A stretch of DNA of 31,930 nt from a virus (IMGVR_UViG_2565956721_000004:1-31930), one strand, 5' to 3'. Numbered from the stretch's first letter, positions 946 to 14,275 are shown. A program made the numbers and translations. The notes: generated from the sequence alone by a model not told the origin.

Positions 946-1101
946 TCACTCACCTGAGTTTCTTTCCAGCCAGCGACGGGCACCATTTTCGGTTTTAAAC
1001 GTTTTGCTTTTGGTATACGTCATCGCGGTGAACGTACCGTCCTGGTTGGGGAACACGCCACATACCAGAGATTCGCTGTTGCCAAGATCGATAGTATCCA
1101 T
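946..1101 (-). CDS. ydfA: YdfA-like protein (DUF1391-type), 51 aa
   Basis: Internal Met of track ORF 946-1182 gives MDTIDLGNSESLVCGVFPNQDGTFTAMTYTKSKTFKTENGARRWLERNSGE with GAGGT Shine-Dalgarno; matches Qin YdfA from memory. The longer upstream extension lacks an RBS. Confidence 0.7.
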   Translation of the reverse strand: MDTIDLGNSESLVCGVFPNQDGTFTAMTYTKSKTFKTENGARRWLERNSGE

Positions 1102-1288
1102 GCTGACCTCATTTCCCCTTAACGCCGGGGTAGCGGAACAAAAACCTGCTGCATAGTTATTAAAGTTGAACCCTGCCGTCATGTTCTTACGCCTCGGGCT
1201 GGCTACTTAACCCCTGACCACTGCCTGGTAACTCGAAGTATTGCCCTGCATTCTGTGGGACGGGGTGGGTTGGTATGAAAGGAAGGAT

Positions 1289-1331
1289 ACCTATGGGTAT
1301 TCAAAAAGTAAATACCCATAGGTAATTTTTT
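1289..1331. promoter_or_regulatory. Perfect 14-bp inverted repeat (TACCTATGGGTATT / AATACCCATAGGTA, 8-nt spacer) followed by T7: operator or + strand terminator between repressor gene end and ydfA promoter region
   Basis: Seen directly in sequence (1289-1302 and 1311-1324, T-run 1325-1331). Function is inferred from position only. Confidence 0.35.
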
Positions 1332-1367
1332 TGGTGTGTCTTAACTGGTGACTGGTTGTTTGGTGAG

Positions 1368-1787
1368 TTATGATGCGTTTTGTGCTTTCTTTTTACGGAT
1401 TTCTTCGTAGATCATATTGTAATACTGTTTTTTCTCTTCAAGAGTTTTTAATAAGTTATCCGCTTCACTTTCTGGCAGTTCGTCTAAGAGATCTAAAAAA
1501 ATACGTTGTCGTGGCGTTAGAACCCTTGTTTCATAATTGGAGGCTGTGTTCGTTGATGATGAAACGATACCATCCATCCATCCCCGGGGTAACCCAAAGG
1601 ACTCTTCTATAATCTCCACCATATCATCAGCGATCCGTTTTTTTCCTTTTTTCCCCTCTGGGTACAACATTCTTGATACATAAGAAGGCTCGCGACCGAT
1701 CTTTCTGGCCACGTTAACCGCTTTACCATCGCATTGCTCATCACGAATTTTGATGAGTTGTTGTCGTCTAAATTCATATTTGTCCAT
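1368..1787 (-). CDS. CI/DicA-like phage repressor (HTH)
   Basis: 139 aa from internal Met MDKYEF...; basic N-terminal region and C-terminal LTPRQRIFLDLLDELPESEADNLL resembling the DicA C-terminus (recalled). It is divergent from the Cro-like gene and co-oriented with the ydfABC-dicF operon. Start choice is uncertain (track ORF extends to 1829). Confidence 0.65.
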   Translation of the reverse strand: MDKYEFRRQQLIKIRDEQCDGKAVNVARKIGREPSYVSRMLYPEGKKGKKRIADDMVEIIEESFGLPRGWMDGIVSSSTNTASNYETRVLTPRQRIFLDLLDELPESEADNLLKTLEEKKQYYNMIYEEIRKKKAQNAS

Positions 1788-1813
1788 AGGTAAATAATAG
1801 ATGCGATTACCGC

Positions 1814-1862
1814 AAGGTAAACAACCCAAGGGTATTGACTTTTGTTTACCTGTAGGTATTCT
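1814..1862 (+). promoter_or_regulatory. Divergent immunity promoter/operator region: -35 TTGACT (1835-1840), 16-bp spacer, -10 TATTCT (1857-1862); 10-bp inverted repeat AGGTAAACAA / TTGTTTACCT (1815-1824 / 1842-1851)
   Basis: Sigma70-like hexamers and inverted repeat read directly; they lie between the divergent repressor and cro-like genes. Confidence 0.4.
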
Positions 1863-1887
1863 TTGCTGTGTTTACTAAGGAGTAGCT

Positions 1888-2169
1888 ATGGAAGAATTAA
1901 GAATATTTCTCAATTCTCTTTCGTCAGATGAACAGCGTATGTTTGCATGTGAGTGTGGTACTAGCATCGGTTATCTAAGAAAGGCATTGAGTAAAGGTCA
2001 AATGTTAGGGGCATCGTTATGTGTCCTTATTGAGCGAGCCAGTAATGGTGAAGTTACACGTCAGCAACTAAGGCCTTTTGATTGGATGAATATTTGGCCC
2101 GAGCTGGAAGATACCAAAACGTTAACACAACCACTTACTAGGAGCTTGATTCATGAAAATCAAGCATGA
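1888..2169 (+). CDS. Cro-like DNA-binding protein, YdaS family (DUF1019-like)
   Basis: AAGGAG RBS 6 nt upstream. Motif CGTSIGYLRKALSKG...ASLCVLIERASNGEVTRQQLRPFDW parallels Rac YdaS (GGQSAMARLLGVS...ERCPAIERATRGEVLCEELRPDIDW) as recalled. Confidence 0.7.
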   Translation: MEELRIFLNSLSSDEQRMFACECGTSIGYLRKALSKGQMLGASLCVLIERASNGEVTRQQLRPFDWMNIWPELEDTKTLTQPLTRSLIHENQA

Positions 2170-2578
2170 ACACATCCGCATGGCGATGAATGCCTGGGCG
2201 CGTCCTGATGGCGAAAAAGTTCCAGCAGCTGGAATAACCCAGGCTTATTTTGAGTTGGGTATGACGTTTCCTGAACTGTATGACGACAGCCATCCGGAAG
2301 CCCTGGCTCGCAATACCCAGAAAATTTTCCGCTGGATAGAGAAAGACACCCCTGATGCAGTTGAAAAAATTCAGGCGTTGTTACCAGCGATCGAAAAGGC
2401 AATGCCACCTTTGCTGGTGGCCAGAATGCGCAGCCACAGTTCAGCTTATTTTCGGGAGCTGGTGGAGACGCGGGAGCGACTGGTGAGAGACGCTGATGAT
2501 TTTGTCGCAGTGGCAATCGCCGGTTTCAATCAGATGAACCGTGGTGGCCCGGCAGGAAATGCTGTGGCAGTACATTGA
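2153..2578 (+). CDS. YdaT-like protein (Rac-type toxic partner of YdaS)
   Basis: Begins MKIKHEHI, the same N-terminus I recall for Rac YdaT; start overlaps the end of the cro-like gene (translational coupling). Confidence 0.6.
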   Translation: MKIKHEHIRMAMNAWARPDGEKVPAAGITQAYFELGMTFPELYDDSHPEALARNTQKIFRWIEKDTPDAVEKIQALLPAIEKAMPPLLVARMRSHSSAYFRELVETRERLVRDADDFVAVAIAGFNQMNRGGPAGNAVAVH

Positions 2579-2649
2579 CTGACAATAGCCATATCGAATC
2601 GCTTCCGGCAACTCGTGAGTAAAAAGATTCGGTATCAGAAGAGGTGAGT

Positions 2650-3720
2650 ATGGCTAACGCCTGGCTCAGATTATGGCATGACATGCCAAATGACCCTAAG
2701 TGGCGAACAATTGCCAGGGTGTCAGGGCAGCCAATTGCAACAGTGATGGCAGTGTATATCCACCTCCTGGTGAGCGCGTCACGAAATGTCACGCGAGGTC
2801 ACATTGATGTCACGACAGAAGATTTGGCAAGTGCGCTCGACGTGACAGAAGAGGTAATTGATTCAATTTTGCAGACGATGCAGGGGCGGGTACTTGATGG
2901 TGATTTAATCACTGGATGGGAAAAACGCCAGGTGCTGAAAGAGGACAACGGCAATATTTCGCAAACCGCAAAATCTCCTGCAGAGCGCAAGAGGGCGCAG
3001 CGAGAGAGGGAAAAAATGCGGGAACAAAATGGCGATTGTCACGGCGCGTCACGAAATGTCACGCACATGTCACGACAAGTCACGACAGATAAAGATACAG
3101 ATAGAGATACAGATAAAGAAGATCAAAACACTATGGTCCATGGCGTAAAAAACGCCACGAACCATGTAGGGGATGTTCAGACCGTCACTCCTGGCCAGCC
3201 CGCAGGCACGACACCGGAAGCCGATTCAGCGTATGCGCTGAAAGCCGATTCGGGCGCTGTGCAGCAGGCGATGACCGCAGGGCCGGAGCAATCACACCAA
3301 CTGCAGCAGCCTGAAGCCGATTCCGCCATTCAGCGGGAAGCCGATCGGGTAGTCCCGGAAAACACCGGGCAGCCTGTGGGACGAGTGGATTATCCGGATG
3401 TGTTCGAACAGGTCTGGCGGGAATACCCGTTACGAGCCGGGGCAAACCCGAAGAAATCCGCTTTCAGTGCCTGGAAGGCCAGATTACGCGAGGGGGTGCC
3501 ACCAGAGGCCATGCTGGATGGTGTGAGGCGTTACACAAGATACCTAGCTGCTACCGGGAAAACGGGAACGGAATTTGTTCAGCGAGCGACGACGTTTTTT
3601 GGACCGGACCGGAATTTTGAAAACCCCTGGTTGCTCCCGGTAAGCGGCACGAACAACCAGCGTTGTGTTAATCATATTTCTGAACCGGACACCGAAATTC
3701 CGCCGGGATTCAGAGGGTAA
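2650..3720 (+). CDS. Phage replication initiator / replisome organizer (YdaU/DUF1376-like N-terminus) carrying internal origin iterons
   Basis: ATG at 2650 with AGAAGAGG RBS (track starts at GTG 2644). N-terminus AWLRLWHDMPNDPKWRTIA resembles replisome-organizer N-domains. Position after cro/ydaT is typical. Contains the iteron clusters listed below. Confidence 0.6.
   Translation: MANAWLRLWHDMPNDPKWRTIARVSGQPIATVMAVYIHLLVSASRNVTRGHIDVTTEDLASALDVTEEVIDSILQTMQGRVLDGDLITGWEKRQVLKEDNGNISQTAKSPAERKRAQREREKMREQNGDCHGASRNVTHMSRQVTTDKDTDRDTDKEDQNTMVHGVKNATNHVGDVQTVTPGQPAGTTPEADSAYALKADSGAVQQAMTAGPEQSHQLQQPEADSAIQREADRVVPENTGQPVGRVDYPDVFEQVWREYPLRAGANPKKSAFSAWKARLREGVPPEAMLDGVRRYTRYLAATGKTGTEFVQRATTFFGPDRNFENPWLLPVSGTNNQRCVNHISEPDTEIPPGFRG
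2774..2816. repeat. Iteron cluster 1: four GTCAC(G/A) repeats phased ~10-11 bp (2778, 2788, 2798, 2809)
   Basis: Read directly. The 21-mer GCGCGTCACGAAATGTCACGC (2774-2794) recurs identically at 3044-3064. Confidence 0.6.
3038..3125. repeat. Iteron cluster 2: five GTCACG repeats phased 10-11 bp (3038, 3048, 3058, 3069, 3079) followed by GATA-rich A/T stretch (3088-3125); candidate phage origin of replication
   Basis: Read directly. The architecture (helically phased iterons plus adjacent A/T-rich DNA inside the initiator gene) mirrors lambda ori inside gene O. Confidence 0.6.
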
Positions 3721-3757
3721 CAGATTTCAGGTCATGGGGTAATTTTCAGGAGGGCTT

Positions 3758-4174
3758 GTGGCAAAAGTTTTTACTCCCGAACTGCGGGAAGAAGTGAAGG
3801 CGCGCATTGTGGAACTGGTACGCAGAGATGGGCGAAAAACGCGTAAACAACTGGAAAATGAAACCGGGGCGACGAGACACCTGATAGAAGTTCTGGTGAA
3901 AGAGCTGGTAGTTAGTGGCGCAGTATATGGTTCAGGACATGGAATATTTCCTTCGGAGCAGGCTCGTAAGGACTGGGGAAAAGCCCGCAAAAAAATGTCG
4001 AGAGCGGCAGTGAAAAAGAAGAGCGACCCTGACCTGATTTATTCATTGCTAGATGGCGAAATACGCCGTTACAACAGACGACAGAATATAATTTGTCGCG
4101 AGTGTCGTCAGAGCGAAGTTATGCAGCGCATACTGGAATTTTATCAGGGAAATGTTCGGTATTTATTGAAGTGA
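3758..4174 (+). CDS. Hypothetical basic protein (possible replication/regulatory accessory)
   Basis: GTG start with strong AGGAGG RBS (3748-3753); 138 aa, Lys/Arg-rich; no recognisable catalytic motif. Confidence 0.5.
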   Translation: MAKVFTPELREEVKARIVELVRRDGRKTRKQLENETGATRHLIEVLVKELVVSGAVYGSGHGIFPSEQARKDWGKARKKMSRAAVKKKSDPDLIYSLLDGEIRRYNRRQNIICRECRQSEVMQRILEFYQGNVRYLLK

Positions 4175-4310
4175 CGAAATTAAAGAGCATTAGTTCAGAT
4201 ATTAATTGACACTTCGATGGCACAGGCCCAGACCTAGTCTGGTTGTCAGCTTTGAGCCAGGTGAACGTTGGTATCGTTAGTTTGTATTAATCAACGGAGA
4301 ATAGGCCAAA

Positions 4311-4340
4311 TGACTTTTCTTTGCTTCTTTTAATTATAAT
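4311..4340 (+). promoter_or_regulatory. Candidate promoter for the STAND gene: -35 TGACTT (4311-4316), 18-bp spacer, -10 TATAAT (4335-4340)
   Basis: Consensus -10 hexamer in an AT-rich 230-bp intergenic region upstream of 4409. Confidence 0.3.
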
Positions 4341-4408
4341 TCAAGTTCAATTGATTACATTGAAGTACTAATGTGAGTCCGTCAAACAAATAGCTCAAGG
4401 AATAGGCC

Positions 4409-7207
4409 ATGTGGGGAAGTGAAAACAAACAAAATCTGGACGTACTGGATCCTGTGCAGTTGGTGCGTATCGAAGCGGTACACCGGGGGTTCCTTTACCA
4501 GCATCTTTACGCTGTAGGCTGCTTACTTTTGGCGCAGAGGGCTGCTATGGACTCAGTAACTGTCGAGCTTGATGAGGATATTGAGCTGAAATCCAAACAG
4601 GAACGTCTCTACATTCAGGTTAAAACCCGTTCAAAACCTATTATGCCCAACGATGTGTCGGGGGCTCTGGAGCGATTTGTAAAGCTCAGAAATGAGCATA
4701 CTTCGGCAAACCGCGAAGGGGTGGCTTCTTTTGTGATTATTGTAAACCAGGCGCCTGGACCGCTGCTTCAGAAGATGATTGACGATAAAAAGCTTCCTTC
4801 TGATGTTCTTATTGTCTGGCCCCAGTCGATAGCTGGACGTCACCCGGCACTTCCGCCCGCATGGAGTACTCTGGCTGATGCGGCCACATGGTGTATCGCA
4901 GAAGCAGAAAAGCTGAAATTTTCACTATTGTCCCCAGAATCCTTGATTTGGAAGTTAGCAGGATTGGTTCAGCTTGCCGCCACCGGAGGCGATACCAATG
5001 GACAACATACGTTTTTCACGGAAGAACTTACTGAACTATTTGAACAGTTGATCGTTCAGCTACAGGACTTTCCTGCACCACCAGCACTGTACCGCCCACA
5101 AAACGAAGAACCTTCTCTCACATCTGGTGAGCGGATCCGTATCCTTTGTGGACTCTCAGGTGCAGGCAAGACAGCTTGGGCCGCACAGGCCGCATTACAC
5201 TCCACTGCACTTTGTGCTTATTACGACACCGGTGATCTTCCCGGTCCAGCTCTGGCCAGTACGCTGGTGCGCGAGATGGCTGCTAGATTTACAGCCCGTG
5301 ACCAAGACGGTTTGCGCAGGATTTTGCTCCCCGGTGCCAGTGGTTTTGAGGCTCTTAGGAGTTTTGATACCTACCTGAAAGAGCAGGGTACCACCTTGGT
5401 GCTGGTTCTGGATAACGCCCATCGTGTACCTGCGGAAAATCTACGGGATGTTCTGAATGCAACTACACATATTCGTTTTGTGCTGTTGTGCCAGCCTCAC
5501 GAAAACGTTCGCGAACTGGAGGTCATGACGGGGCTACAGCGCGAGGGCCTGCAGGGATGGAATCTCGATACGGTAGCTGTCGTTGTAAACGATATCGGAG
5601 GATTTGCCACCGCTATGGGATACGAGCAGCTACGGGCTTACACTGGTGGTCTTCCCCTGTATGTAGAGAGCGCCGCAAAAATCGCCGTTTCTGATTATGA
5701 GCGTAATGTCGATGCTCTGTGTGCTGAACTCCAGCAACAAACCCATACTGCGGAAACCGCCCAAGAAATTATTCTGTCACGTGTATTTCAGGGATTTGAA
5801 TCACTACTTCAGAGCGCGCTGGCATTGTTCAGTCTCTCTGACGTAGGGCTGAGTCGCGAAGAGATTTCTACGCTCCTAATCAATTCGCTGAACATTTCAC
5901 CAAGCAGTGCGGCTTCTTTAATTAGGAAAATGCGCGCTACTGGCACTATTGAAATTTATGGAAACCAGACCCTGAAGGTACATGATGCTGTCAGGGGGCT
6001 AGGACTGCAACATCTGGAACTGATGGATCAGGGTATATCGAACAAAGCGCTACTAGCGCTGAAAGACCTTTTAGTTGAAAGTCTTCATAATACCCGCAAT
6101 ACAAAACGGTTATCGTTGTTGACTCAACTTTATATTAAGCTCAATGATGTCACGACGTTGATCGAACTCTCAGGCCAAGAAATGTTTTATGAGATGGGCG
6201 TGACGGTCGACATTCTTGCAAGCTTGGAGCGTGCTGCAACATCGGACTTATTGGGACCTGTTCATAAATTCTGGGCATTGGATGGCCTTGTTTTCGTTGA
6301 GCTTAAAGACGGAATATCCGACCACATTGCTCAGAGGTTAAACATCATGGGAGCTTTACTTGCGGAGCACAAGTTCGGCTATCAAGAAGAGATGGCCTAT
6401 GCAATGAAACGAATGTTATTTTCGGCAGAAAGCAATGATGCACGAGAAGTTCAAAAGCTGGCACAGGAAGTCCGCCCCCAACTCCCAGATGAAGAACATA
6501 AACGCATCTTTGACTACAACCATGCCATTGCACTCTGGAGATTAAAAAAACTCAAGGATGCTGAAACATTAAGCTGTAATGTTATACAAGGGTACTATTC
6601 TTTATTTGGTATCACACCTGCTGATGTCATAGGAAAAAACGCCGACGCATTATGGAAAACTATTAATCATTCCGAAAATATGCAGGAACACTTTAAACAT
6701 ATGGCTGATGCTCTGGAGTTGCTGGCCAGAATTCGTGATGCGCAGGGAAAACTGTCACCATTACTGCGTATTCATTCGATGAAGTTCTACAATCTGGCCA
6801 TGGCCCCGGAATCCATGGTCAGGGTGGGCCAAGATCTGGCGGATGAGTTTGTTGCCATAAAGGATTACGACGGTGCCAAGGAAGTCATGGAGCAACATGT
6901 CCTGCCGGTTGTCAATGAGGCAGGTCTAGTACATCGACTGATTCAGGTTCGAAGCCAATACGCAGTCATATTGGCACTATCGGGTCAGCATAAAGCAGCT
7001 GATGTCGAAATGCAGCGCCTTGCTCCCTATATCGAAGGCCTCACAGGTGTACAGCGTCAAGAAATCCAAAATCAATCAAATTACATCGTACAGCTTGCCC
7101 ATAAAGCAGCAAAGACTAAATTAACTGAAGTTTTTGGTGCGGTCGGCCGGAATGAACAATGCCCCTGTGGCTCGGGAATAAAGTACAAAAAATGTCACGG
7201 TGCCTGA
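4409..7207 (+). CDS. STAND-type P-loop NTPase with N-terminal Mrr-like nuclease-type domain, TPR-like helical C-terminal region and terminal SEC-C zinc motif (candidate antiphage sensor)
   Basis: 932-aa ORF with AAGGA RBS. Motifs read from the translation: D55...Q70-V-K72 (hhhQxK, Mrr/PD-(D/E)xK-like); Walker A G248-LSGAGKT255 (nt 5150-5173); Walker B L330-VLVLDN336; GLPL motif 414-417 (NB-ARC/STAND hallmark); long helical repeat region; C918-P-C920-GSGIKYKK-C929-H930 (SEC-C type). Fold and function are inferred. Confidence 0.85.
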   Translation: MWGSENKQNLDVLDPVQLVRIEAVHRGFLYQHLYAVGCLLLAQRAAMDSVTVELDEDIELKSKQERLYIQVKTRSKPIMPNDVSGALERFVKLRNEHTSANREGVASFVIIVNQAPGPLLQKMIDDKKLPSDVLIVWPQSIAGRHPALPPAWSTLADAATWCIAEAEKLKFSLLSPESLIWKLAGLVQLAATGGDTNGQHTFFTEELTELFEQLIVQLQDFPAPPALYRPQNEEPSLTSGERIRILCGLSGAGKTAWAAQAALHSTALCAYYDTGDLPGPALASTLVREMAARFTARDQDGLRRILLPGASGFEALRSFDTYLKEQGTTLVLVLDNAHRVPAENLRDVLNATTHIRFVLLCQPHENVRELEVMTGLQREGLQGWNLDTVAVVVNDIGGFATAMGYEQLRAYTGGLPLYVESAAKIAVSDYERNVDALCAELQQQTHTAETAQEIILSRVFQGFESLLQSALALFSLSDVGLSREEISTLLINSLNISPSSAASLIRKMRATGTIEIYGNQTLKVHDAVRGLGLQHLELMDQGISNKALLALKDLLVESLHNTRNTKRLSLLTQLYIKLNDVTTLIELSGQEMFYEMGVTVDILASLERAATSDLLGPVHKFWALDGLVFVELKDGISDHIAQRLNIMGALLAEHKFGYQEEMAYAMKRMLFSAESNDAREVQKLAQEVRPQLPDEEHKRIFDYNHAIALWRLKKLKDAETLSCNVIQGYYSLFGITPADVIGKNADALWKTINHSENMQEHFKHMADALELLARIRDAQGKLSPLLRIHSMKFYNLAMAPESMVRVGQDLADEFVAIKDYDGAKEVMEQHVLPVVNEAGLVHRLIQVRSQYAVILALSGQHKAADVEMQRLAPYIEGLTGVQRQEIQNQSNYIVQLAHKAAKTKLTEVFGAVGRNEQCPCGSGIKYKKCHGA

Positions 7208-7484
7208 GTCTTTGTACGACCATGCGGGCCTTATTGTCTTGCTATTGCTCTTATGGTTCGCCTTTCTGATTGATTTCATATTGGCGAGGTGACGGGAGTT
7301 AAGTAGAATGGCTGCGGGTGCTTGAGGCTATCTGTCTCAGGCATGAACACCAAAGGCAGATAGAGAAAAGCCCCAGTTAACATTACGCGTCCTGCAAGAC
7401 GCTTAACATTAATCTGAGGCTCAATCTATGAACGGCAAATCTAGGTTAGCCTCTTACGTGCCGAAAGGCAAGGAGAAGCAGGCT

Positions 7485-7640
7485 ATGAAGCAGCAAAAGG
7501 CGATGTTAATCGCCCTGATCGTCATCTGTTTAACCGTCATTGTGACGGCACTGGTAACGAGGAAAGACCTCTGCGAGGTACGAATCCGAACCGGCCAGAC
7601 GGAGGTCGCTGTCTTCACAGCTTACGAACCTGAGGAGTAA
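7485..7640 (+). CDS. hokD: Hok/Gef-family type I toxin (HokD/RelF-like), with overlapping upstream mok-like frame starting 7428
   Basis: 51 aa MKQQKAMLIALIVICLTVIVTALVTRKDLCEVRIRTGQTEVAVFTAYEPEE: single transmembrane helix plus conserved Hok C-terminal motif; matches HokD as I recall it. Confidence 0.8.
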   Translation: MKQQKAMLIALIVICLTVIVTALVTRKDLCEVRIRTGQTEVAVFTAYEPEE

Positions 7641-7708
7641 GAGACCTGGCGGGGGAGAAATCCCTCGCCACCTCTGATGTGTCAGGCATCCTCAACGCAC
7701 CCGCACTT

Positions 7709-7728
7709 AACCCGCTTCGGCGTTTTTT
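7709..7728 (+). terminator. Short GC hairpin (CCGCTTCGGCG) + T6 after hok
   Basis: Read directly; stem is short, so strength is uncertain. Confidence 0.35.
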
Positions 7729-7783
7729 CCGTTGATTAACTCTAGTTATTAGAGAACCGAACTTTTATTGATGGGGCAGGGAG

Positions 7784-8176
7784 ATGAAGAAACTTGTTTT
7801 AGTCGCAGGTGTAATGATTGCAACAGTAATGTTGGGAGGGTGTGCAGCAAAGGTCGATCCAGCGTTGAAAGCAGAAGCAATGAAGCCACTAACATGTAAT
7901 GATGAAAAGCAATGTGACTTTTATTGGAAACGAGCGCAATTCTGGTTGGCTAATAATTCCTCATGGAAAATTCAAACGGCGACAGACACGCTAATTTCCA
8001 CTTATAATCCCTCTCCAAATAGTCCATTCCTCGCTTATCAAGTGAGTAAAATGCCAAATGAAGATGGATCCTCAAGAATTTTCATCAAGCCTTTTTGCGA
8101 TAATATGTTTGGCTGTCAACCAAACCCCTATCAGGCAGTTGTTTCCTTTAAAAACTTCGTTAAAACAGGGCAGTAG
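7784..8176 (+). CDS. Secreted lipoprotein of unknown function (cargo; possible superinfection-exclusion factor)
   Basis: GGGCAGGGAG RBS; signal peptide with lipobox MLGG-C (MKKLVLVAGVMIATVMLGGC); four further Cys in the mature part. Not part of the Qin backbone as I recall it. Confidence 0.6.
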   Translation: MKKLVLVAGVMIATVMLGGCAAKVDPALKAEAMKPLTCNDEKQCDFYWKRAQFWLANNSSWKIQTATDTLISTYNPSPNSPFLAYQVSKMPNEDGSSRIFIKPFCDNMFGCQPNPYQAVVSFKNFVKTGQ

Positions 8177-8375
8177 TGTATAGCTTGGACGATAAATTAT
8201 TAGTGAAAACGCCGTAAACCCTCACCCAATGTGGACTAAGTCTATCAAACATGACTGTGATGATTAGTCCGTAGTTGTTGCCTATGAAATCTGGATTGAG
8301 TCAGGGTTTAATCCAATAATTATTCTATCGTTCCTTTACAAGTCCGGTATATTACTTTCAGTTTGTTTTAGCATA

Positions 8376-8400
8376 CCCGCTTCGGCGGGTTTTGTTTTTT
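8376..8400 (+). terminator. Intrinsic terminator CCCGCTTCGGCGGG + TTTTGTTTTTT
   Basis: Strong GC hairpin with tetraloop and U-tract; it overlaps the track start of ORF 8392, arguing that ORF starts later. Confidence 0.6.
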
Positions 8401-8472
8401 CCTGGCATTCTGGTTTACAATTCGCACGCCAGCCTGAACAACTGGCACCTGCTGCGCCAGCAGAGACAACCG

Positions 8473-8751
8473 ATGGCGCACGATACCAAATTACACAATT
8501 CTGATGATTTTGCCGTCTTTGCCAGCAGGCACGGGCGGCGTTCCCGCACTTTCAAATCTGACTGGTTCCAGCATGACCCATGCACTGAAGAACAGGCCGA
8601 GTGGCTAATTCAGTGCTACCGCAGACACGGATACGAGATTAAGAAAGCCCTCAGCCTCGATTATCGTCACTGGATAATCTCCGTCAGGCTTCCTTACTCC
8701 GAACGCCCACCGCGTCCGTCCCGCACATTCCAGCAACGCATCTGGAGGTAA
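8473..8751 (+). CDS. Hypothetical small protein (positionally Rem-like)
   Basis: Internal ATG at 8473 downstream of the terminator, in frame with track ORF 8392-8751; sits between hok and the DUF968 gene as rem does in Qin (recalled). Weak RBS. Confidence 0.4.
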   Translation: MAHDTKLHNSDDFAVFASRHGRRSRTFKSDWFQHDPCTEEQAEWLIQCYRRHGYEIKKALSLDYRHWIISVRLPYSERPPRPSRTFQQRIWR

Positions 8752-8752
8752 C

Positions 8753-9811
8753 GTGCGAGTATTACTTCGACCTGTTCTGGTACCGGAACTCGGGCTGGTG
8801 ATCGTTAAGCCGGGCCGTGAATCCATGCCGGTATTCCACAATACCCGGGTACTGGTGGAGCCGGAACCGAAAAGCATGCGTAATCTGCCGTCCGGGGTTG
8901 TTCCTGCCGTTCGCCAGCCGCTAGTGGAAGACAAAACATTGCTGCCGTTTTTCAGTAACGCACGGGTGATTCGTGCTGCTGGTGGTGCTGGTGCATTGTC
9001 TGACTGGCTGTTGCGCCATATTAAATCCTGCCAGTGGCCACACGGCGATTATCATCACAGCGAAACCGTCATTCACCGTTATGGTACCGGCGCAATGGTG
9101 TTGTGCTGGCACTGCGACAACCAGCTGCGTGACCAGACATCCGAATCACTCGAGCAACTTGCTCATCAAAACCTGTCAGCATGGATGATTGACGTCATAC
9201 TCCATGCAATGAATGGCTCGCAGGAACGGGAATTATCGCTGGCTGAATTATCCTGGTGGGCGGTCCGCAATCAGGTGGCGGACGCGCTACCGGAAGCGGT
9301 ATTACGTCGTTCGCTGGGGTTGCGTGCGGAAAAAATCCGCTCAATGTACCGTGAAAGCGACATCGTACCGGGAGAGCAGACCGCCACTAGCATACTGAAG
9401 CAGCGCACAAAAAATCTTGCGCCGCTGCCTCACGCCCACCAGCAACAAATCCCGCCACAGGAAAAGACTGTGGTCAGCATTGCCGTTGATCCGGAGTCAC
9501 CGGCTCAGTATCTCCAGCGCCAGAAACCACAACGGGAAGAGATGCCTGTATACACGCGCTGGGTAAAAACGCAGAAATGCATGACGTGCGGTAATCAGGC
9601 AGATGATCCGCATCACATCATTGGTCATGGACTGGGAGGGATGGGAACAAAGGCTGATGATTTGTTTGTTATTCCGCTGTGCCGTAAATGTCATAACGAA
9701 CTGCACGCCGGGGTAAAAGATTTTGAAGAAAAACACGGCAGCCAGCTGTTGTTGCTGATTCGTTTTTTAATGCACGCGAGAAATTCGGGTGTTCTGAAGT
9801 GGAAAGCATGA
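8753..9811 (+). CDS. DUF968/YdfU-like protein with C-terminal HNH-like Cys/His motif
   Basis: GTG start with GGAGGT RBS; C-terminal CMTCGN...HHIIGH...CRKCHNELH; position immediately upstream of rusA as for ydfU-type genes. Confidence 0.7.
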   Translation: MRVLLRPVLVPELGLVIVKPGRESMPVFHNTRVLVEPEPKSMRNLPSGVVPAVRQPLVEDKTLLPFFSNARVIRAAGGAGALSDWLLRHIKSCQWPHGDYHHSETVIHRYGTGAMVLCWHCDNQLRDQTSESLEQLAHQNLSAWMIDVILHAMNGSQERELSLAELSWWAVRNQVADALPEAVLRRSLGLRAEKIRSMYRESDIVPGEQTATSILKQRTKNLAPLPHAHQQQIPPQEKTVVSIAVDPESPAQYLQRQKPQREEMPVYTRWVKTQKCMTCGNQADDPHHIIGHGLGGMGTKADDLFVIPLCRKCHNELHAGVKDFEEKHGSQLLLLIRFLMHARNSGVLKWKA

Positions 9812-10177
9812 ATGACTGAACGCATAGAATTTGTTTTGCCTTACCCGCCGACGGTGAATACCTACTGGCGACGTCATGGCAATACGTATTTCATCTCGGA
9901 AGCCGGAAAGCGTTATCGCCGTGATGTGGCGCTAATTGTTCGCCAGCAGCGGCTGAAATTAAGCCTGTCCGGAAGGCTGGCGATAAAGATTATTGCAGAG
10001 CCACCGGATAAGCGCCGCCGCGACCTGGACAATATCCTGAAGGCACCACTGGATGCGCTTACGCATGCCGGACTACTTATAGACGACGAGCAGTTTGATG
10101 AAATCAATATTGTGCGCGGTCAGCTCGTTCCTGGTGGGCGGCTGGGGATAAAAATCACAGAACTGGAGTGCGCATGA
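9812..10177 (+). CDS. rusA: Holliday-junction resolvase RusA
   Basis: 121 aa; the conserved RRRDLDN...KA..DALT.AG...DD motif block matches RusA. Confidence 0.85.
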   Translation: MTERIEFVLPYPPTVNTYWRRHGNTYFISEAGKRYRRDVALIVRQQRLKLSLSGRLAIKIIAEPPDKRRRDLDNILKAPLDALTHAGLLIDDEQFDEINIVRGQLVPGGRLGIKITELECA

Positions 10178-10863
10178 ATAACCAGTATTTACAGTTTGTG
10201 CGTGAGCAGCTCATTATCGCCACCGCTGATTTGAGTGGGGCAACAAAAGGTCAGCTTGAAGCCTGGCAAGAGAATGCCATGTTCGATACAGGGCGTTACA
10301 GGCGAAAAAAAATCCGGTACCGCGATGAAGTGACTGGAAAAATGATAACGCGGGATAATCCACCAATCCCGGGAAAGCAATCGCTGGCGAAGGGGACGTC
10401 AATTCCTCTGGTCAGTCCGGTTGAGTTTTCGACATCATCGTGGCGGCGGGCTGTTCTGTCTCTTGAAGAACATCATAAAGCCTGGTTGTTGTGGTGTTAC
10501 AGCGGGAGTATTTGTTGGGAATATCAGATCGCGATAACACAGTGGGCGTGGAATGAATTTAATACTCAATCCGGTACCAGAAAAATTGCAGGGAAAACGC
10601 AGGAACGCCTGAAAAAATTAATCTGGCTGGCGGCGCAGGCAGTAAAAGCAGAACTTTTTGGTGGGGAAGGTTATGAATACCAGGAGCTGGCATTACTGGC
10701 GGGAGTGACAACTAAAAACTGGTCCAAAACATTTACTCGTCACTGGGTTGCAATGAAACACATTTTTCACCGACTGGATAGTGAGGCTTTATTGTTTGTA
10801 ATGAGAACACGTTCAAAACAAAAGGCGGCATTTTCAAAGCAAAGTGTTGCAAAAGTAGATTGA
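10174..10863 (+). CDS. Putative late-gene antiterminator (Q-like), assigned mainly by position
   Basis: ATG 10174 overlaps rusA stop (ATGA) with GGAG RBS; it is the last gene before the PR'/tR'-like promoter-terminator pair, tRNAs and lysis genes. No motif-level confirmation. Confidence 0.45.
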   Translation: MNNQYLQFVREQLIIATADLSGATKGQLEAWQENAMFDTGRYRRKKIRYRDEVTGKMITRDNPPIPGKQSLAKGTSIPLVSPVEFSTSSWRRAVLSLEEHHKAWLLWCYSGSICWEYQIAITQWAWNEFNTQSGTRKIAGKTQERLKKLIWLAAQAVKAELFGGEGYEYQELALLAGVTTKNWSKTFTRHWVAMKHIFHRLDSEALLFVMRTRSKQKAAFSKQSVAKVD

Positions 10864-10875
10864 AAGGCATATATT
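10847..10875 (+). promoter_or_regulatory. PR'-like late promoter: -35 TTGCAA, 17-bp spacer, -10 TATATT
   Basis: Near-consensus sigma70 promoter overlapping the 3' end of the Q-like gene, about 55 nt upstream of an intrinsic terminator. Confidence 0.45.
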
Positions 10876-10930
10876 TCATGCAAATCTGATATTTTGCCGA
10901 TTTTGTACGTGATGGCAAAAGCAAACAAAA

Positions 10931-10953
10931 CCCGCCCACAAGCGGGTTTTTTT
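10931..10953 (+). terminator. tR'-like intrinsic terminator (CCCGC-CCACAA-GCGGG + T7)
   Basis: Read directly; A-run upstream and U-run downstream could make it bidirectional. Confidence 0.6.
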
Positions 10954-11035
10954 ATGCCACTTATCTCGGATAGACATGGTGAATGCGCTGGTGGAGGAAG
11001 TAAGGGTGATTTTTAACCAGGTGATTTTTGAATGC

Positions 11036-11064
11036 TTGCAACATTGATTTCGTAACGTTATTAT
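11036..11064 (+). promoter_or_regulatory. tRNA-cluster promoter: -35 TTGCAA, 17-bp spacer, -10 TATTAT
   Basis: Read directly; ends about 10 nt before the first tRNA. Confidence 0.5.
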
Positions 11065-11073
11065 CCTGCGCCC

Positions 11074-11149
11074 GGCCCTTTAGCTCAGTGGTGAGAGCGA
11101 GCGACTCATAATCGCCAGGTCGCTGGTTCAAATCCAGCAAGGGCCACCA
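11074..11149 (+). tRNA. tRNA-Ile2 (anticodon CAU, ileX-like; formally could decode Met)
   Basis: Cloverleaf folded by hand: acceptor GGCCCTT/AAGGGCC, anticodon loop CTCATAA, T-loop TTCAAAT, 3' CCA; close to E. coli ileX as recalled. Confidence 0.8.
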
Positions 11150-11150
11150 A

Positions 11151-11227
11151 CCGCCACTAGCTCATCAGGAAAGAGCGTCAACCCTTTAAGTTGAGTGTGC
11201 GAGGTTCGAGTCCCCGGTGGCGGTCCA
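11151..11227 (+). tRNA. Atypical tRNA-like gene, anticodon UUU (Lys) with C at position 33 and 5'-CC start
   Basis: Hand fold: acceptor CCGCCAC/GTGGCGG, U8, D-loop with GG, anticodon stem TCAAC/GTTGA with loop CCTTTAA, T-loop TTCGAGT (one A-C mismatch in T-stem), CCA end. It is only 1-2 nt from its neighbours. Confidence 0.5.
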
Positions 11228-11229
11228 GT

Positions 11230-11305
<76 letters not shown>

Positions 11306-11308
11306 TAT

Positions 11309-11383
<75 letters not shown>

Positions 11384-11676
11384 GTTAGAGTCTTTCAGTC
11401 TGCGATGATGGGAAATCCCGGAGTGACTGAAAGACGTTTAAGTTATGAATGATCGCTTTTTTTTTGCAAAATTGCTGTGCAGAAATACTAACCTTCGGGC
11501 AGGCGATCATTCATAAGCACTCTGCTTTTATTCCGATTAACTGTGAGTGGTTTGTTGGATAGAGTGCTTTCCTTACTGTATATATCGTTTCGCCCGCTTT
11601 TGCGGTTTTTTCTTTTCAAATCCCTTTCATTTCTCAGTGTAAAACTACGCCATCCGTTATTTGCGGAGGTGAGGCT

Positions 11677-11892
11677 ATGAAATCCATGGACAAAATTTCA
11701 ACGGGCATTGCCTACGGCACCTCCGCAGGCAGTGCTGGCTACTGGTTTTTACAGTGGCTTGATCAGGTCAGTCCGTCACAGTGGGCTGCGATTGGTGTAC
11801 TGGGGAGTCTGGTTCTGGGCTTCCTGACATATCTGACTAACCTGTATTTCAAAATCAGAGAGGACCGTCGTAAGGCTGCACGGGGAGAGTAA
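11677..11892 (+). CDS. Class II holin / pinholin (phage 21 S21-type, dual-start motif MKSMDK)
   Basis: 71 aa, two transmembrane segments, charged C-terminus; sequence matches S21 pinholin as recalled. Confidence 0.85.
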
Positions 11893-11896
11893 TTCA

Positions 11897-12247
11897 ATGA
11901 CTCAAAACTATGAACTGATTGTGAAAGGGATCCGCAATTTTGAGAATAAAGTTACGGTAACTTTAGCGTTACGGGACAAAAAACGCTTTGACGGTGAAAT
12001 TTTTGACCTGGACATCTCGCTGGACCGTGTTGAAGGTGCCGCGCTGGGGTTTTATGAGGCAGCAGCCAGAAGGAGCATCAGACAGGTCTTCCTGGATGTT
12101 GCTGCCGGGTTATGTGAAGGGGATGAGCAGTCGCCGGAAAAGCGCCCCGTAATTTTAGAGGCGCAGAATGTGTGGATAACCTACAAAGGAAAGCTACCAG
12201 GAAGAATTACTGGTTCTCTGAAGACTCCTCCGGAATCACAACCTTAA
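11897..12247 (+). CDS. YdfR-like protein (DUF1327-type) inserted between holin and endolysin
   Basis: 116-aa ORF between holin and lysozyme, the same position as ydfR in Qin (recalled). Confidence 0.5.
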   Translation: MTQNYELIVKGIRNFENKVTVTLALRDKKRFDGEIFDLDISLDRVEGAALGFYEAAARRSIRQVFLDVAAGLCEGDEQSPEKRPVILEAQNVWITYKGKLPGRITGSLKTPPESQP

Positions 12248-12310
12248 GTCACTGACCGGAACAGATAAACCTGTCCGTGGGCAGAAACCGATAAATCCTG
12301 ATAAATATCC

Positions 12311-12844
12311 ATGAACGCAAAAATCAGATACGGCCTGTCGGCTGCCGTTCTGGCACTGATTGCCGTCGGTGCGCCCGCGCCTGATATTCTCGACCAGTTT
12401 CTGGATGAAAAAGAAGGTAACCACACAACGGCATACCGCGATGGTTCCGGCATCTGGACCATCTGTCGGGGTGCCACGATGGTGGATGGAAAACCCGTTT
12501 TTCCCGGTATGAAACTGTCGAAGGAAAAATGCGACCAGGTCAACGCCATTGAGCGTGATAAGGCGCTGGCATGGGTGGAGCGCAATATTAAAGTACCACT
12601 GACCGAACCACAAAAAGCGGGTATCGCGTCATTTTGTCCCTATAACATTGGCCCCGGTAAGTGTTTTCCATCGACGTTTTATAAGCGGCTGAATGCTGGT
12701 GATCGTAAGGGCGCATGCGAGGCGATTCGCTGGTGGATAAAAGATGGTGGGCGCGATTGCCGCATACGTTCAAATAACTGCTATGGACAGGTTATTCGTC
12801 GTGACCAAGAAAGCGCATTAGCCTGTTGGGGAATAGATCAGTGA
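12311..12844 (+). CDS. SAR endolysin (T4-lysozyme-like muramidase with N-terminal signal-anchor-release helix)
   Basis: N-terminal hydrophobic SAR segment [16 protein letters not shown]; catalytic E...D...T pattern in [20 protein letters not shown]; pairs with the pinholin. Confidence 0.85.
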
Positions 12845-13308
12845 GCAGAGTCGCCGCGATTATTTATGCTCTGGTTATCTGCATCATCGTCTGCCTGTCG
12901 TGGGCGGTCAATCATTACCGTGATAACGCCATCACCTACAAAGAACAGCGTGATAAAAAAGTCAGTGAGCTGAAGCAGCTGACCGCCACCATCGCTGACA
13001 TGCAGCAGCGTCAGCGTGATGTTGCTGCGCTCGATGCAAAGTACTCGAGAGAATTAGCCAATGCGAAAGCTGAAAATGAAACTCTGCGCGCTGATGTTGC
13101 CGCTGGTCGTAAGCGCCTGCGGGTCAATGCCAGTTGCTCCGCAGCCGTGCGTGAAGCCACCGGACCCACCAGCGTGGATAATGCAACCAGCCCCAGACTG
13201 GCAGACACCGCTGAACGGGATTATTTCACCCTCAGAGAACGGTTGATGACGATGCAGAAGCAACTGGAAGGGGCACAGCTATACATTCGTGAGCAATGTC
13301 TCAGATAA
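12841..13308 (+). CDS. Rz-type i-spanin
   Basis: GTG start overlapping the endolysin stop (GTGA); N-terminal transmembrane helix then coiled-coil periplasmic domain; contains the embedded Rz1 gene. Confidence 0.8.
13061..13246 (+). CDS. Rz1-type o-spanin (Pro-rich outer-membrane lipoprotein embedded in Rz in the +1 frame)
   Basis: [20 protein letters not shown] lipobox and proline-rich mature part; fully embedded within Rz. Confidence 0.75.
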
Positions 13309-13463
13309 AAACCGGCCAAGGATAATCCGCTAAAGATTCGCCGGTGGCGAAAGAGAGCCAAGGTGTCAACCTACGCTATTACTTATGATAATGCAACAGA
13401 CGAAGCGGGACATATTGGCGCATAACAAATCAGTGCAGGCTAACTGCAGGAAGAACTTAGGGC

Positions 13464-13730
13464 GTGAACGTAGAAAACCTAAGTAACGCACATTACATCT
13501 ATAACGAGATGAAAGAGCTACAGCGACAGAAAGGTATACTGGAAAGTGGTGCAGGGCTTGGTGTGACAATCCAGTCTGCCTATCAATATAGTGCTTTTCT
13601 TGAGGCCATACGCCCGCATGCAGTTGCTGAACTTAACAGCCGTATTGAGGAAAAGAAATCCGCGCTGGTTAATTTGGGTGCTTCCTTCTCTATATACGAG
13701 CATAATAAGGCGGGTTGGAAACCCGCCTAA
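13464..13730 (+). CDS. Hypothetical small protein
   Basis: GTG start with AGGAAG RBS 10 nt upstream; no recognisable motifs; its 3' end encodes a GC hairpin (13700-13730). Confidence 0.35.
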   Translation: MNVENLSNAHYIYNEMKELQRQKGILESGAGLGVTIQSAYQYSAFLEAIRPHAVAELNSRIEEKKSALVNLGASFSIYEHNKAGWKPA

Positions 13731-13735
13731 AGCAC

Positions 13736-14275
13736 TTAGAAACTGCGTGGAGCTGTGGAAAGAATGGATGCCAGTTCTTCCTTCGATAAATCCCAGCTTC
13801 GATTTACAGCGTCAATTTTCTTAAACTCATCAAGCATTGCGTTATAGAGATGTTCTGTACGTGAATGAGTATTGGCAATGGGCTGTTTCTGTTCGGGGAA
13901 GCGATCAATTTTCTGATATGCCTCAATGATACTGAAGTAATCGCATTCATTATTACCGTCGAAACCTGGGAGCTGAATTGCCCCATCATGTATTTTTAGA
14001 TGATGGTCACGGACTAATTCTTTTTGCTCGTCATCACTAAGTTTCCTGAAAGCATTGGAAAGTCCGCGATACATATTCAAGACAGCAGTAACAAAATCAC
14101 GATCTTCTTTACTTGGTTCGTCAACATCCAAATGTGAATATTCGGCCTTGATAACCCAATCATTACCAGATGACACAGCATATTTAACAAGCTGTGGATC
14201 AATATCAGTTTCGATACCTAGGTGGATGGCAATGTCACATAACAAAATGGTATTGATTTTATCTTTAATATCCAT
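13736..14275 (-). CDS. YfbU-family (UPF0304-like) protein, antisense moron between lysis and packaging modules
   Basis: 179 aa, GAGGGT RBS; resembles E. coli YfbU in LPGFDGNNECDYF...THSRTEHLYNAMLDEF versus YfbU FLGFDAATEARY...THGFNAQTPMWEKY (recalled); opposite orientation to all neighbours. Confidence 0.55.
   Translation of the reverse strand: MDIKDKINTILLCDIAIHLGIETDIDPQLVKYAVSSGNDWVIKAEYSHLDVDEPSKEDRDFVTAVLNMYRGLSNAFRKLSDDEQKELVRDHHLKIHDGAIQLPGFDGNNECDYFSIIEAYQKIDRFPEQKQPIANTHSRTEHLYNAMLDEFKKIDAVNRSWDLSKEELASILSTAPRSF

Follow-up and report, generated by a model that had tools for sequence, protein, structure and literature searches.

A probable two-sided accessory-gene hotspot around the hok/sok locus of Qin/Rac-type lambdoid prophages

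Introduction

Why would a lambdoid prophage carry genes for a STAND NTPase, a Hok-family toxin and a lipoprotein between its replication genes and its DUF968-rusA-Q block? This question is raised by positions 4175-8176 of a 31,930-nucleotide (nt) stretch of viral DNA (IMGVR_UViG_2565956721_000004:1-31930; this whole stretch is called the window below), an interval that is 100% identical to a prophage of Escherichia coli AR_0089 (locus L001), whose integration site adjoins tRNA-Ser/mtfA. A preliminary description of this DNA had regarded the junction as a hotspot at which toxin-antitoxin and defence cargo is exchanged, with the STAND gene occupying the place that relBE holds in the Qin prophage of E. 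coli K-12. The first of these ideas was borne out by conserved flanks, highly variable contents with recognisable defence systems, and a near-empty comparator; the second proved inaccurate at base level. Overall, we favour the reading, with a probability of roughly 0.7, that Qin/Rac-type lambdoid prophages have in this interval a two-sided hotspot for accessory genes, whose cargo moves and acts in the way proposed in the Discussion.

Results

Conserved flanks and variable content on both sides of hok

The three cargo genes were all found at the coordinates previously given, each with its own upstream non-coding stretch (234 nt at 4175-4408; 277 nt at 7208-7484, which includes the hok leader; and 143 nt at 7641-7783). 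The flanks were likewise as described, with the replication initiator and DUF977 genes on the left and the 92-amino-acid (aa) gene, DUF968, RusA and Q on the right (8473-10863). The DUF977 product matches Pfam DUF977 (3.2e-28) and PHROG 142, "Ren-like exclusion protein" (9.8e-40), and the 92-aa gene together with DUF968 (8473..9811, plus strand) is the right anchor, at the start of the nin-like block.

Seventy loci with a DUF977 gene followed by hokD were collected from IMG/VR contigs and E. coli genomes, of which 10 came from a look-up of the exact HokD sequence, 3 from E. coli hits and the rest from 80 IMG/VR contigs encoding a DUF977 relative; a scan of genome contigs with the DUF977 protein gave 107 pattern matches and no confirmed relative. 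Alignment of these related prophages, which the preliminary description had proposed as a check, revealed conserved flanks with variable inserts. The distance from DUF977 to hokD ranges from 1008 to 5254 base pairs (bp), with 49 distinct lengths in the 69 measurable loci, and gene clustering resolved 42 gene architectures in the 70 loci, so the same three genes are by no means uniformly present. On the other side, the distance from hokD to the 92-aa gene varies from 78 to 2387 bp (15 distinct lengths and 9 architectures in 43 loci). Adjacent control junctions are fixed, with 68 nt between YdaT and O (19/19) and 4 nt between the 92-aa gene and DUF968 (43/43), so the variability is focused on the two sides of hok; the DUF968-to-RusA junction measures 3, 21 or 24 nt. 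The variability at this junction exceeds chance or general mosaicism.

The left slot is bounded by the Ren-like DUF977 gene on one side and by the hok promoter on the other. Homology of the left flank to L003, L008, L009, L064, L087, L093 and L100 stops at 4259 (4269 in L003). In other loci this flank ends in a hairpin, GTCCGCTTT-GTGCCA-AAAGCGGAC, which is degenerate in the window, and the cargo is bounded by hairpins with the common 3' arm AAAGCGGAC. The prophage of E. coli A20 (L100) provides a near-empty comparator, having 483 bp where the window has 2971 bp (4260-7230); the two prophages share 89.5% identity to the left of this segment (window 2147-4259, L100 1573-3692) and 98.8% to its right (window 7231-10794, L100 4176-7735), the latter stretch taking in the lipoprotein, DUF968, RusA and Q. 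Over the survey, breakpoints fall at 4157-4259 on the left and at 7231-7316 and 7722-7734|8375 on the right. A transposon insertion with target-site duplication was considered as the origin of the STAND cassette and rejected, because there are no repeats at 4259/7231 and 483 bp are lost relative to A20.

A wide range of cargo was found next to hok, comprising at least ten recognised defence or candidate systems in this non-random sample, and five different defence-type cargos lie between identical flanks (4259|7231). Besides the STAND gene (8 loci), the left slot holds Lit with a RES-domain protein (L003), a 341-aa RelA/SpoT protein (L009; PADLOC PDC-S33, E 1e-118), a 595-aa DUF7380/EMARD protein (L008; PDC-S39), a BstA-like gene (4 loci), a gop-beta-cll-like set of cll and a PD-Lambda-2_C-like gene (4 loci), the Rosmerta genes RmrT/RmrA (2 loci), KwaB (L079), a C5-methyltransferase with a HEC-04/ABC-type ATPase (L089), a peptidase C13/caspase-like protein (2 loci) and a QueH-like gene (5 loci; motifs by eye only). 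Three pairs on the minus strand each include a membrane protein, which is joined by NA37, a YejK-like nucleoid-associated protein (L051, L076), by DUF6731 (L046), or, where the membrane protein has 184 aa, by a 310-aa protein (L006, L038, L040, L080; no family match). This last pair is the commonest context of the exact HokD (52 similar places). No PADLOC model matched any of the three, which are candidate new defence pairs. A second independent sample, gathered from complete E. coli genomes by way of the right flank, added retron Ec67, DUF262, DUF5677 and DUF6650 cargos.

A further left-slot cargo, a set of TetR-like, adenosine deaminase, HAM1 (ITPase-like) and ThsA-like SIR2 genes, was observed in L064, L087 and L093 (~10650-13725), with the flanks of the STAND cassette and without hok downstream. 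Its SIR2 and deaminase proteins match the PADLOC ThsA and CARF_ADA models, and the set has the look of a nucleotide-depleting or nucleotide-modifying system that has no name yet.

The right flank of the left slot is about 250 bp longer upstream in other loci, where it holds an intact 29-aa hydrophobic open reading frame (ORF). This ORF, MLVLKCALAIAAVMAIYCLAVVL(M/T)DRLSD, has an AGGAGG ribosome-binding site and in many prophages closely precedes the hok promoter, being intact in L003, L008, L009, L064 and L100 (L100 4128-4217). A 534-nt query made of the DUF977 3' end and the flank with the 29-aa ORF matched 2182 of 5426 E. coli genomes, most of the sampled rows matching the ORF-bearing part. 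The ORF could encode a small membrane peptide or a toxin.

hok/sok and the position of relBE

The relB-relE-hokD arrangement given in the preliminary description for K-12 Qin was confirmed; the full order there is relB-relE-hokD-rem-ydfU-ydfT, with 71 nt from the end of relE to hokD. The window itself contains no relBE at any position (tblastn with K-12 RelB and RelE gave no match better than E=1 in the whole window), and its hok promoter is intact, with the STAND cassette (4260-7230) on the upstream side. In Qin prophages of the K-12 type, a 3.27-kb block consisting of an rve-type transposase gene (intK), flxA, ydfV, relB and relE is inserted inside hok/sok, between the sok/mok region and the hok ribosome-binding site, at which it is bordered by a 15-nt duplication, GGAGAAGCAGGCTAT. 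Accordingly, in L004 and L012 the 5' half of hok (window 7297-7486) is found 3.3 kb upstream of the coding part (window 7471-7728), and K-12 itself retains hok only from window position 7471 onwards. We therefore rejected relBE as an occupant of the STAND position, since these split halves identify it as an insertion into hok/sok; K-12 hokD is without its own regulation because this relBE-bearing insertion split the locus. Gerdes and colleagues are said to have reported that relF/hokD is co-transcribed with relBE and that sok and mok are lost, which fits such an insertion.

Judged by its sequence, hok/sok is complete in the window, unlike in K-12, a point that had escaped the preliminary description. 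Rfam sok (RF01794) scores 110 bits at 7316-7490 (gathering cut-off 59), the hokD product matches HOK_GEF (PF01848) at 3e-23 and is 100% identical to K-12 HokD, mok is an in-frame ORF at 7428-7640, and an fbi-like 3' complement of the hok 5' end was recognised by eye at ~7689-7702. Such a locus kills once the Sok antisense RNA is not replenished, for example upon host transcription shut-off or loss of the locus.

The hok module is also the most conserved DNA of the neighbourhood, which the preliminary description had missed. Its median nt identity to the window is 95%, as compared with 77% for DUF977, 88% for the 92-aa gene, 89% for DUF968 and 92% for RusA, a comparison in which the ten loci chosen by exact HokD slightly inflate the hok value and the IMG/VR loci, chosen by DUF977, carry the opposite bias. 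In addition, the edges of the module recur as homology breakpoints at 7296/7297/7304/7316 on the left and 7722/7728/7734 on the right, and its DNA was matched in most complete E. coli genomes. This conservation is compatible with a role as shared homology for cargo exchange. The locus might instead be a mere passenger moron that neither anchors recombination nor stabilises the slot: three loci (L064, L087, L093) have the left flank and cargo and no hok, and hok is often split, as in K-12, or hit by insertion sequences (IS). Against this, the module is the best conserved DNA of the region and breakpoints cluster at both of its edges, and we regard this explanation as possible yet unlikely.

The STAND protein

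According to Pfam, the 932-aa protein has an N-terminal Cap4-type nuclease, a central AAA_22/AAA_16 NTPase, which scores with AAA_22 and not with NACHT or NB-ARC, and SEC-C at the extreme C-terminus. It contains the STAND-type core of antiviral STAND proteins (nucleotide-binding, helical and winged-helix domains with Walker A and B), as well as the C-terminal TPR-like repeat sensor and N-terminal nuclease effector with catalytic residues that mark Avs/antiviral STAND proteins. Among 53 homologues, down to 49% identity, the nuclease residues E53, D55, D57, E59, Q70 and K72 are invariant, and so are G248, G251, G253, K254 and T255 of Walker A (G248-x2-G-x-GKT) and D335 (53/53). An AlphaFold2 model (predicted local distance difference test, pLDDT, 80.8) gave the STAND-TPR protein 6mfv as its best Foldseek match (E 2.4e-12), followed by plant NLR resistosomes, Cdc6 and Cap4, with further fold matches to ORC, RFC, MuB, MalT domain III, SeAvs3 and the LmuA/HamA nucleases. 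Domains and fold thus run from nuclease through STAND NTPase to TPR sensor, and therefore follow the Avs plan, with a SEC-C tail added. Weak PADLOC v2 matches were obtained to LmuA (N-terminal nuclease) and to E1-E2/E2 and PDC-S12 (C-terminal SEC-C region).

A search of 5.8 billion proteins showed that this family is tight, nearly all members having 932 aa and 50-80% identity, with hosts in Enterobacterales, Vibrio, Shewanella, Aeromonas and Pseudomonas. Outside E. coli, the family member is a lone gene; the Vibrio cholerae homologue is part of a defence island, where it adjoins PIN, AbiH and a Gabija-like pair (GajA-like OLD/TOPRIM ATPase and UvrD-type helicase), and a Pseudomonas homologue adjoins AbiH. 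In E. coli the cassette is rare, with 16 carriers among 5426 complete genomes. In isolated phage genomes (INPHARED) the gene was not found, the only matches being two unannotated "Bacteriophage sp." contigs from human faecal samples, and full-text literature searches found neither a mention of the protein's accessions nor a description of a SEC-C/STAND/Cap4/TPR anti-phage protein. As a separate observation, the gene is IS-disrupted in two carriers, one of the 16 genomes (NZ_OZ546984.1, H11, by ISEc52) and a separate IMG/VR contig (L015), which is compatible with a fitness cost or decay.

A different kind of sensing is conceivable for a defence STAND protein of this make-up, one in which no phage structural protein is recognised directly in the Avs manner and the SEC-C tail docks a host factor (SecB, the ribosome) or nucleic acid and senses its perturbation. 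SecA docks SecB or the ribosome through its SEC-C zinc tail; the motif of the window protein aligns with the zinc motifs of SecA and YchJ, its residues C918, C920, C929 and H930 are at least 90% conserved in the 53 homologues, and EF-Tu in the SeAvs7 complex offers a precedent (PMC13581612). However, several homologues have no SEC-C (P0045-47, P0058, P0085, P0110, P0113-115), so the motif is dispensable in some lineages, and the large TPR domain is the canonical sensor for such an architecture. Host-factor sensing is rather improbable in our judgement.

A second slot inside the hok terminator

A second variable slot, which the preliminary description had missed, lies inside the hok terminator. 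In the window, the lipoprotein cassette has 39% G+C, as against 51% for the whole window, and stands between two copies of a 13-bp direct repeat, ACCCGCTTCGGCG; "empty" loci (L002, L007, L016, L035, L044 and others) go directly from 7728 to 8375. This slot holds nothing in 13 loci, Rem in 16, a 58-aa ORF in 4, the lipoprotein in 3 and Rosmerta in 3, and in 3 loci a small ORF, a Fic/Doc-motif gene (motif by eye; no family model matched) and Rem. The Rosmerta pair (RmrT/RmrA) was observed in the right slot of L013, L023 and L015 and in the left slot of L074 and L075; since it is found in either slot, cargo moves between the sides of hok.

The 130-aa product of the cassette is a predicted outer-membrane lipoprotein, with a lipobox LGG|C20, Ala at +2 and conserved Cys38, 44, 105 and 111. 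The cassette has 255 carriers among 5426 E. coli genomes. The protein, modelled with a pLDDT of 82.8, belongs to a narrow family whose 16 clusters come from Escherichia, Enterobacter, Pantoea and Phytobacter. It matched no Pfam, NCBIfam or PADLOC family and only PHROG 16082, a family with no assigned function. Homology to Cor was rejected, as the PHROG Cor match (E 0.0071) covers the signal peptide only; by sequence or fold the protein belongs to none of the Cor, Llp and Bor families, the lipobox signal being the sole shared feature.

Weighing the evidence

Several points weigh against the two-sided hotspot and its defence link. The loci were chosen by DUF977 similarity or exact HokD sequence, and the sample is not random. 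The STAND protein matches no named PADLOC v2 system (no Avs/AVAST or PD-Lambda-4 match at E<=0.01) and, even with a 53-sequence profile, has no PDB sequence relative outside SEC-C. A default-stringency promoter scan found none upstream of the STAND or lipoprotein gene; the candidate promoter that a relaxed scan placed before the STAND gene matches at only 10/12 positions with a 19-nt spacer, and the relaxed scan of 7641-7790 gave no promoter-like site for the lipoprotein gene, for which read-through from hok is possible, given this result and the 3-bp stem of the upstream terminator. The lipoprotein model also has no significant fold match (PDB only; best E 0.058, BamC).

The remaining two points bear on ordinary lambdoid mosaicism, according to which the slot is filled by nin/ea-type accessory genes without a particular defence link, the STAND gene being carried along incidentally. 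In about half of the 70 left slots, small phage genes of the nin type (DUF551, DUF4406, DUF7167, Ead/Ea22-like) make up the whole content, so the left slot takes accessory genes in general, with defence as a strong component, and is not purely a defence island; and a survey covering all Hok homologues saw no enrichment in the neighbourhood of DefenseFinder systems (12%, with 9.4% expected; 10.1101/2025.08.07.668861). The same survey found hok enriched in prophages (10.1101/2025.08.07.668861), and our results suggest that the prophage hokD subset is an exception to its lack of a defence association, partly because much of this cargo is not yet in DefenseFinder-type catalogues. Mosaicism alone is difficult to reconcile with variation that is concentrated at two junctions between invariant neighbours, with the number of defence systems next to hok and with different defence-type cargos sharing identical flanks, and we consider it quite improbable. 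A role of the 932-aa protein in phage replication or regulation instead of immune sensing, as an ATPase (a Cdc6/ORC-like or TniB/MuB-like AAA+ loader or a MalT-like regulator) acting with the replication genes, would agree with its AAA_22 score, its matches to Cdc6, ORC, RFC, MuB and MalT domain III and the place of its gene directly after the O-like and DUF977 genes, but is very improbable, since the gene is missing from nearly all similar prophages, including the 98.8%-identical A20 backbone, has no counterpart in the isolated phages of INPHARED, is found away from prophages next to Gabija-like, AbiH and PIN genes, and specifies a Cap4-type nuclease with invariant catalytic-type residues.

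Features of the window

Table 1 Positions of the slot, its cargo and the neighbouring genes in the window
Feature	Position	Strand	Remarks
YdaS-like regulator	1888-2169
YdaT	2153-2578
Replication initiator (O-like)	2644-3720
DUF977 / "Ren-like" gene	3758-4174	+	closes the replication module; anchors the slot on the left
Conserved left flank	4175..4259	.	homology to other loci stops at 4259
STAND cargo cassette	4260..7230	+	2971 bp, single gene
Candidate sigma-70 promoter for STAND gene	4310..4340	+	ATGACT-19-TATAAT; relaxed pattern scan
932-aa Avs-like STAND gene	4409-7207	+
Cap4-type PD-(D/E)xK nuclease	aa ~15-215, nt 4451-5053	+	by Pfam and fold
NTPase	aa ~240-400, nt 5126-5608	+	Walker A GxxGxGKT 248-255; Walker B D335
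Helical and winged-helix region	aa ~400-540	+
TPR-like sensor	aa 541-909, nt 6029-7135	+
SEC-C zinc motif	aa 914-931, nt 7148-7201	+
Conserved right-flank remnant	7231..7296	+	7231-7273 is the 3' half of the 29-aa hydrophobic ORF
hok promoter-like site	7281..7309	+	TTGGCG-17-TAGAAT; directly upstream of Rfam match start 7316
Complete hok mRNA unit	7316..7728	+	leader and sok target, mok, hokD, fbi-like 3' complement, truncated terminator
Candidate Sok antisense RNA and promoter	7410..7509	-	TTAACA-18-TAGCCT, -10 ends at 7480; weak consensus match
hokD	7485-7640	+
Left copy of 13-bp direct repeat	7710..7722	+	hok terminator hairpin, reduced to a 3-bp stem
Lipoprotein cassette	7723..8387	+	665 bp, inserted in hok terminator; right repeat copy 8375-8387
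130-aa lipoprotein gene	7784-8176	+
Intact intrinsic terminator	8375..8400	+	ACCCGC-TTCG-GCGGGT, then T-run
92-aa gene	8473-8751	+
DUF968	8753-9811	+
RusA	9812-10177
Q	10168-10863

Beyond the slot, an array of four tRNA genes lies directly past Q (window 11074-11383), namely a CAT tRNA (Met according to ARAGORN, Ile according to PGAP), Lys-UUU, Thr-UGU and Gly-UCC; the related prophage L002 has Ile-Arg-Arg tRNAs instead. This array may be a codon-usage supplement or a counter to tRNA-cleaving defences. In L010, a different AAA_16/ATPase_2 protein of 463 aa is encoded between Q and the holin gene (10696-12087), so the junction of Q and lysis genes may be a further site of STAND-like cargo. In the RefSeq annotation of the identical AR_0089 prophage, a GNAT acetyltransferase gene, likely another moron, stands at ~13488-13973 on the minus strand, between the lysis and the HNH/terminase genes. 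The integrase of that prophage, next to tRNA-Ser and outside the window, and YdfR (window ~11897-12248) are both annotated as frameshifted, and the prophage may therefore be unable to excise.

Discussion

How would cargo enter and leave such a slot, and what would it do there? In the two-sided hotspot that we favour, recombination between prophages at short conserved flanks would swap the cargo, the likely points of exchange being the hairpin-bearing 3' end of DUF977, the promoter and leader of hok, and the terminator hairpin; IS insertions and the occasional illegitimate event probably contribute as well. By analogy with its family, the STAND protein is probably expressed in the lysogen from its own promoter, and an infecting phage would supply the protein to which its TPR sensor binds. 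On this model, NTP-dependent oligomerisation would unite the N-terminal nuclease domains of the window protein, and the assembled nucleases would cut DNA, leading to abortive infection, a course of events that has been shown for Avs3 and Avs7. The lipoprotein most likely alters the cell surface in a form of superinfection exclusion, which is a guess and the weakest part of the explanation. A bolder version would make hok/sok the functional core of the site, a portable homology of ~430 bp and ~95% conservation through which lambdoid prophages of otherwise divergent sequence exchange defence cargo on either side, and whose killing penalises the loss of cargo, with the STAND protein founding an undescribed Avs clade and its SEC-C recruiting SecB or the ribosome; we hold this combination to be improbable.

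If confirmed, the hotspot would allow defence genes to be located by their position in that class of prophage which is most common in E. coli. The slot cargos without a PADLOC model are ready candidates (STAND-SEC-C, the NA37 pairs, the DUF6731 pair, the widespread pair of 184-aa and 310-aa proteins, and the C13/caspase-like protein), and so is the set of SIR2, deaminase and HAM1, of which SIR2 and deaminase match PADLOC models. The analysis also gives a base-resolution account of the missing regulation of K-12 hokD and qualifies the report of no association between hok and defence.

Both the site and the STAND gene belong to known kinds, a prophage defence hotspot and an Avs-like STAND. Among the nearest known systems are the lambdoid "morons", such as bor, lom and HK97 gp15, which Juhala and colleagues reportedly described in 2000 from HK97/HK022. 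The lipoprotein cassette is moron-like in being small and low in G+C, a single gene between the genes of the neighbouring unit with a terminator of its own (8375-8400); unlike morons, it has no promoter-like site upstream and is inserted within a terminator hairpin whose upstream copy is weakened, and the lipoprotein is in no known moron family (Cor, Bor, Llp). With K-12 relBEF, the window shares an identical HokD peptide and the same position on the prophage map, from the replication/immunity side to rem-ydfU-Q. The K-12 hokD is without promoter, sok and mok, whereas the window has a complete hok/sok, no relBE, and cargo upstream of the hok promoter.

Among STAND sensors, Avs families have been numbered to Avs24, and 198 defence-associated clades, including prophage-encoded ones, are distinguished (PMC13581612). 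The nearest are Avs proteins with a Cap4-type nuclease effector, such as SeAvs3 (PDB 8dgc) and SeAvs7 (PMC13581612). The window protein, with 932 aa, is much smaller than the SeAvs3 chain (2028 residues), has no sequence similarity to solved Avs proteins and is matched by no Avs model of PADLOC; its C-terminal SEC-C zinc motif goes unmentioned in the main text of the article on the Avs families (PMC13581612). As for the site, P2-like prophages and P4-like satellites are known to have defence hotspots (Rousset et al. 2022, PMC9122126; Vassallo et al. 2022, PMC9519451; PMC13586616), where the content consists largely of anti-phage systems. Like these, the present junction is a fixed backbone position with conserved flanking genes and highly variable content, at which candidates can be found by position. 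It differs from them in belonging to Qin/Rac-type lambdoid prophages, where it takes the slot of the early-right operon after the replication genes, in being two-sided around a type I toxin-antitoxin locus, and in having cassettes bounded by hairpin/terminator sequences, whereas the P2 and P4 hotspots have only protein-coding flanks.

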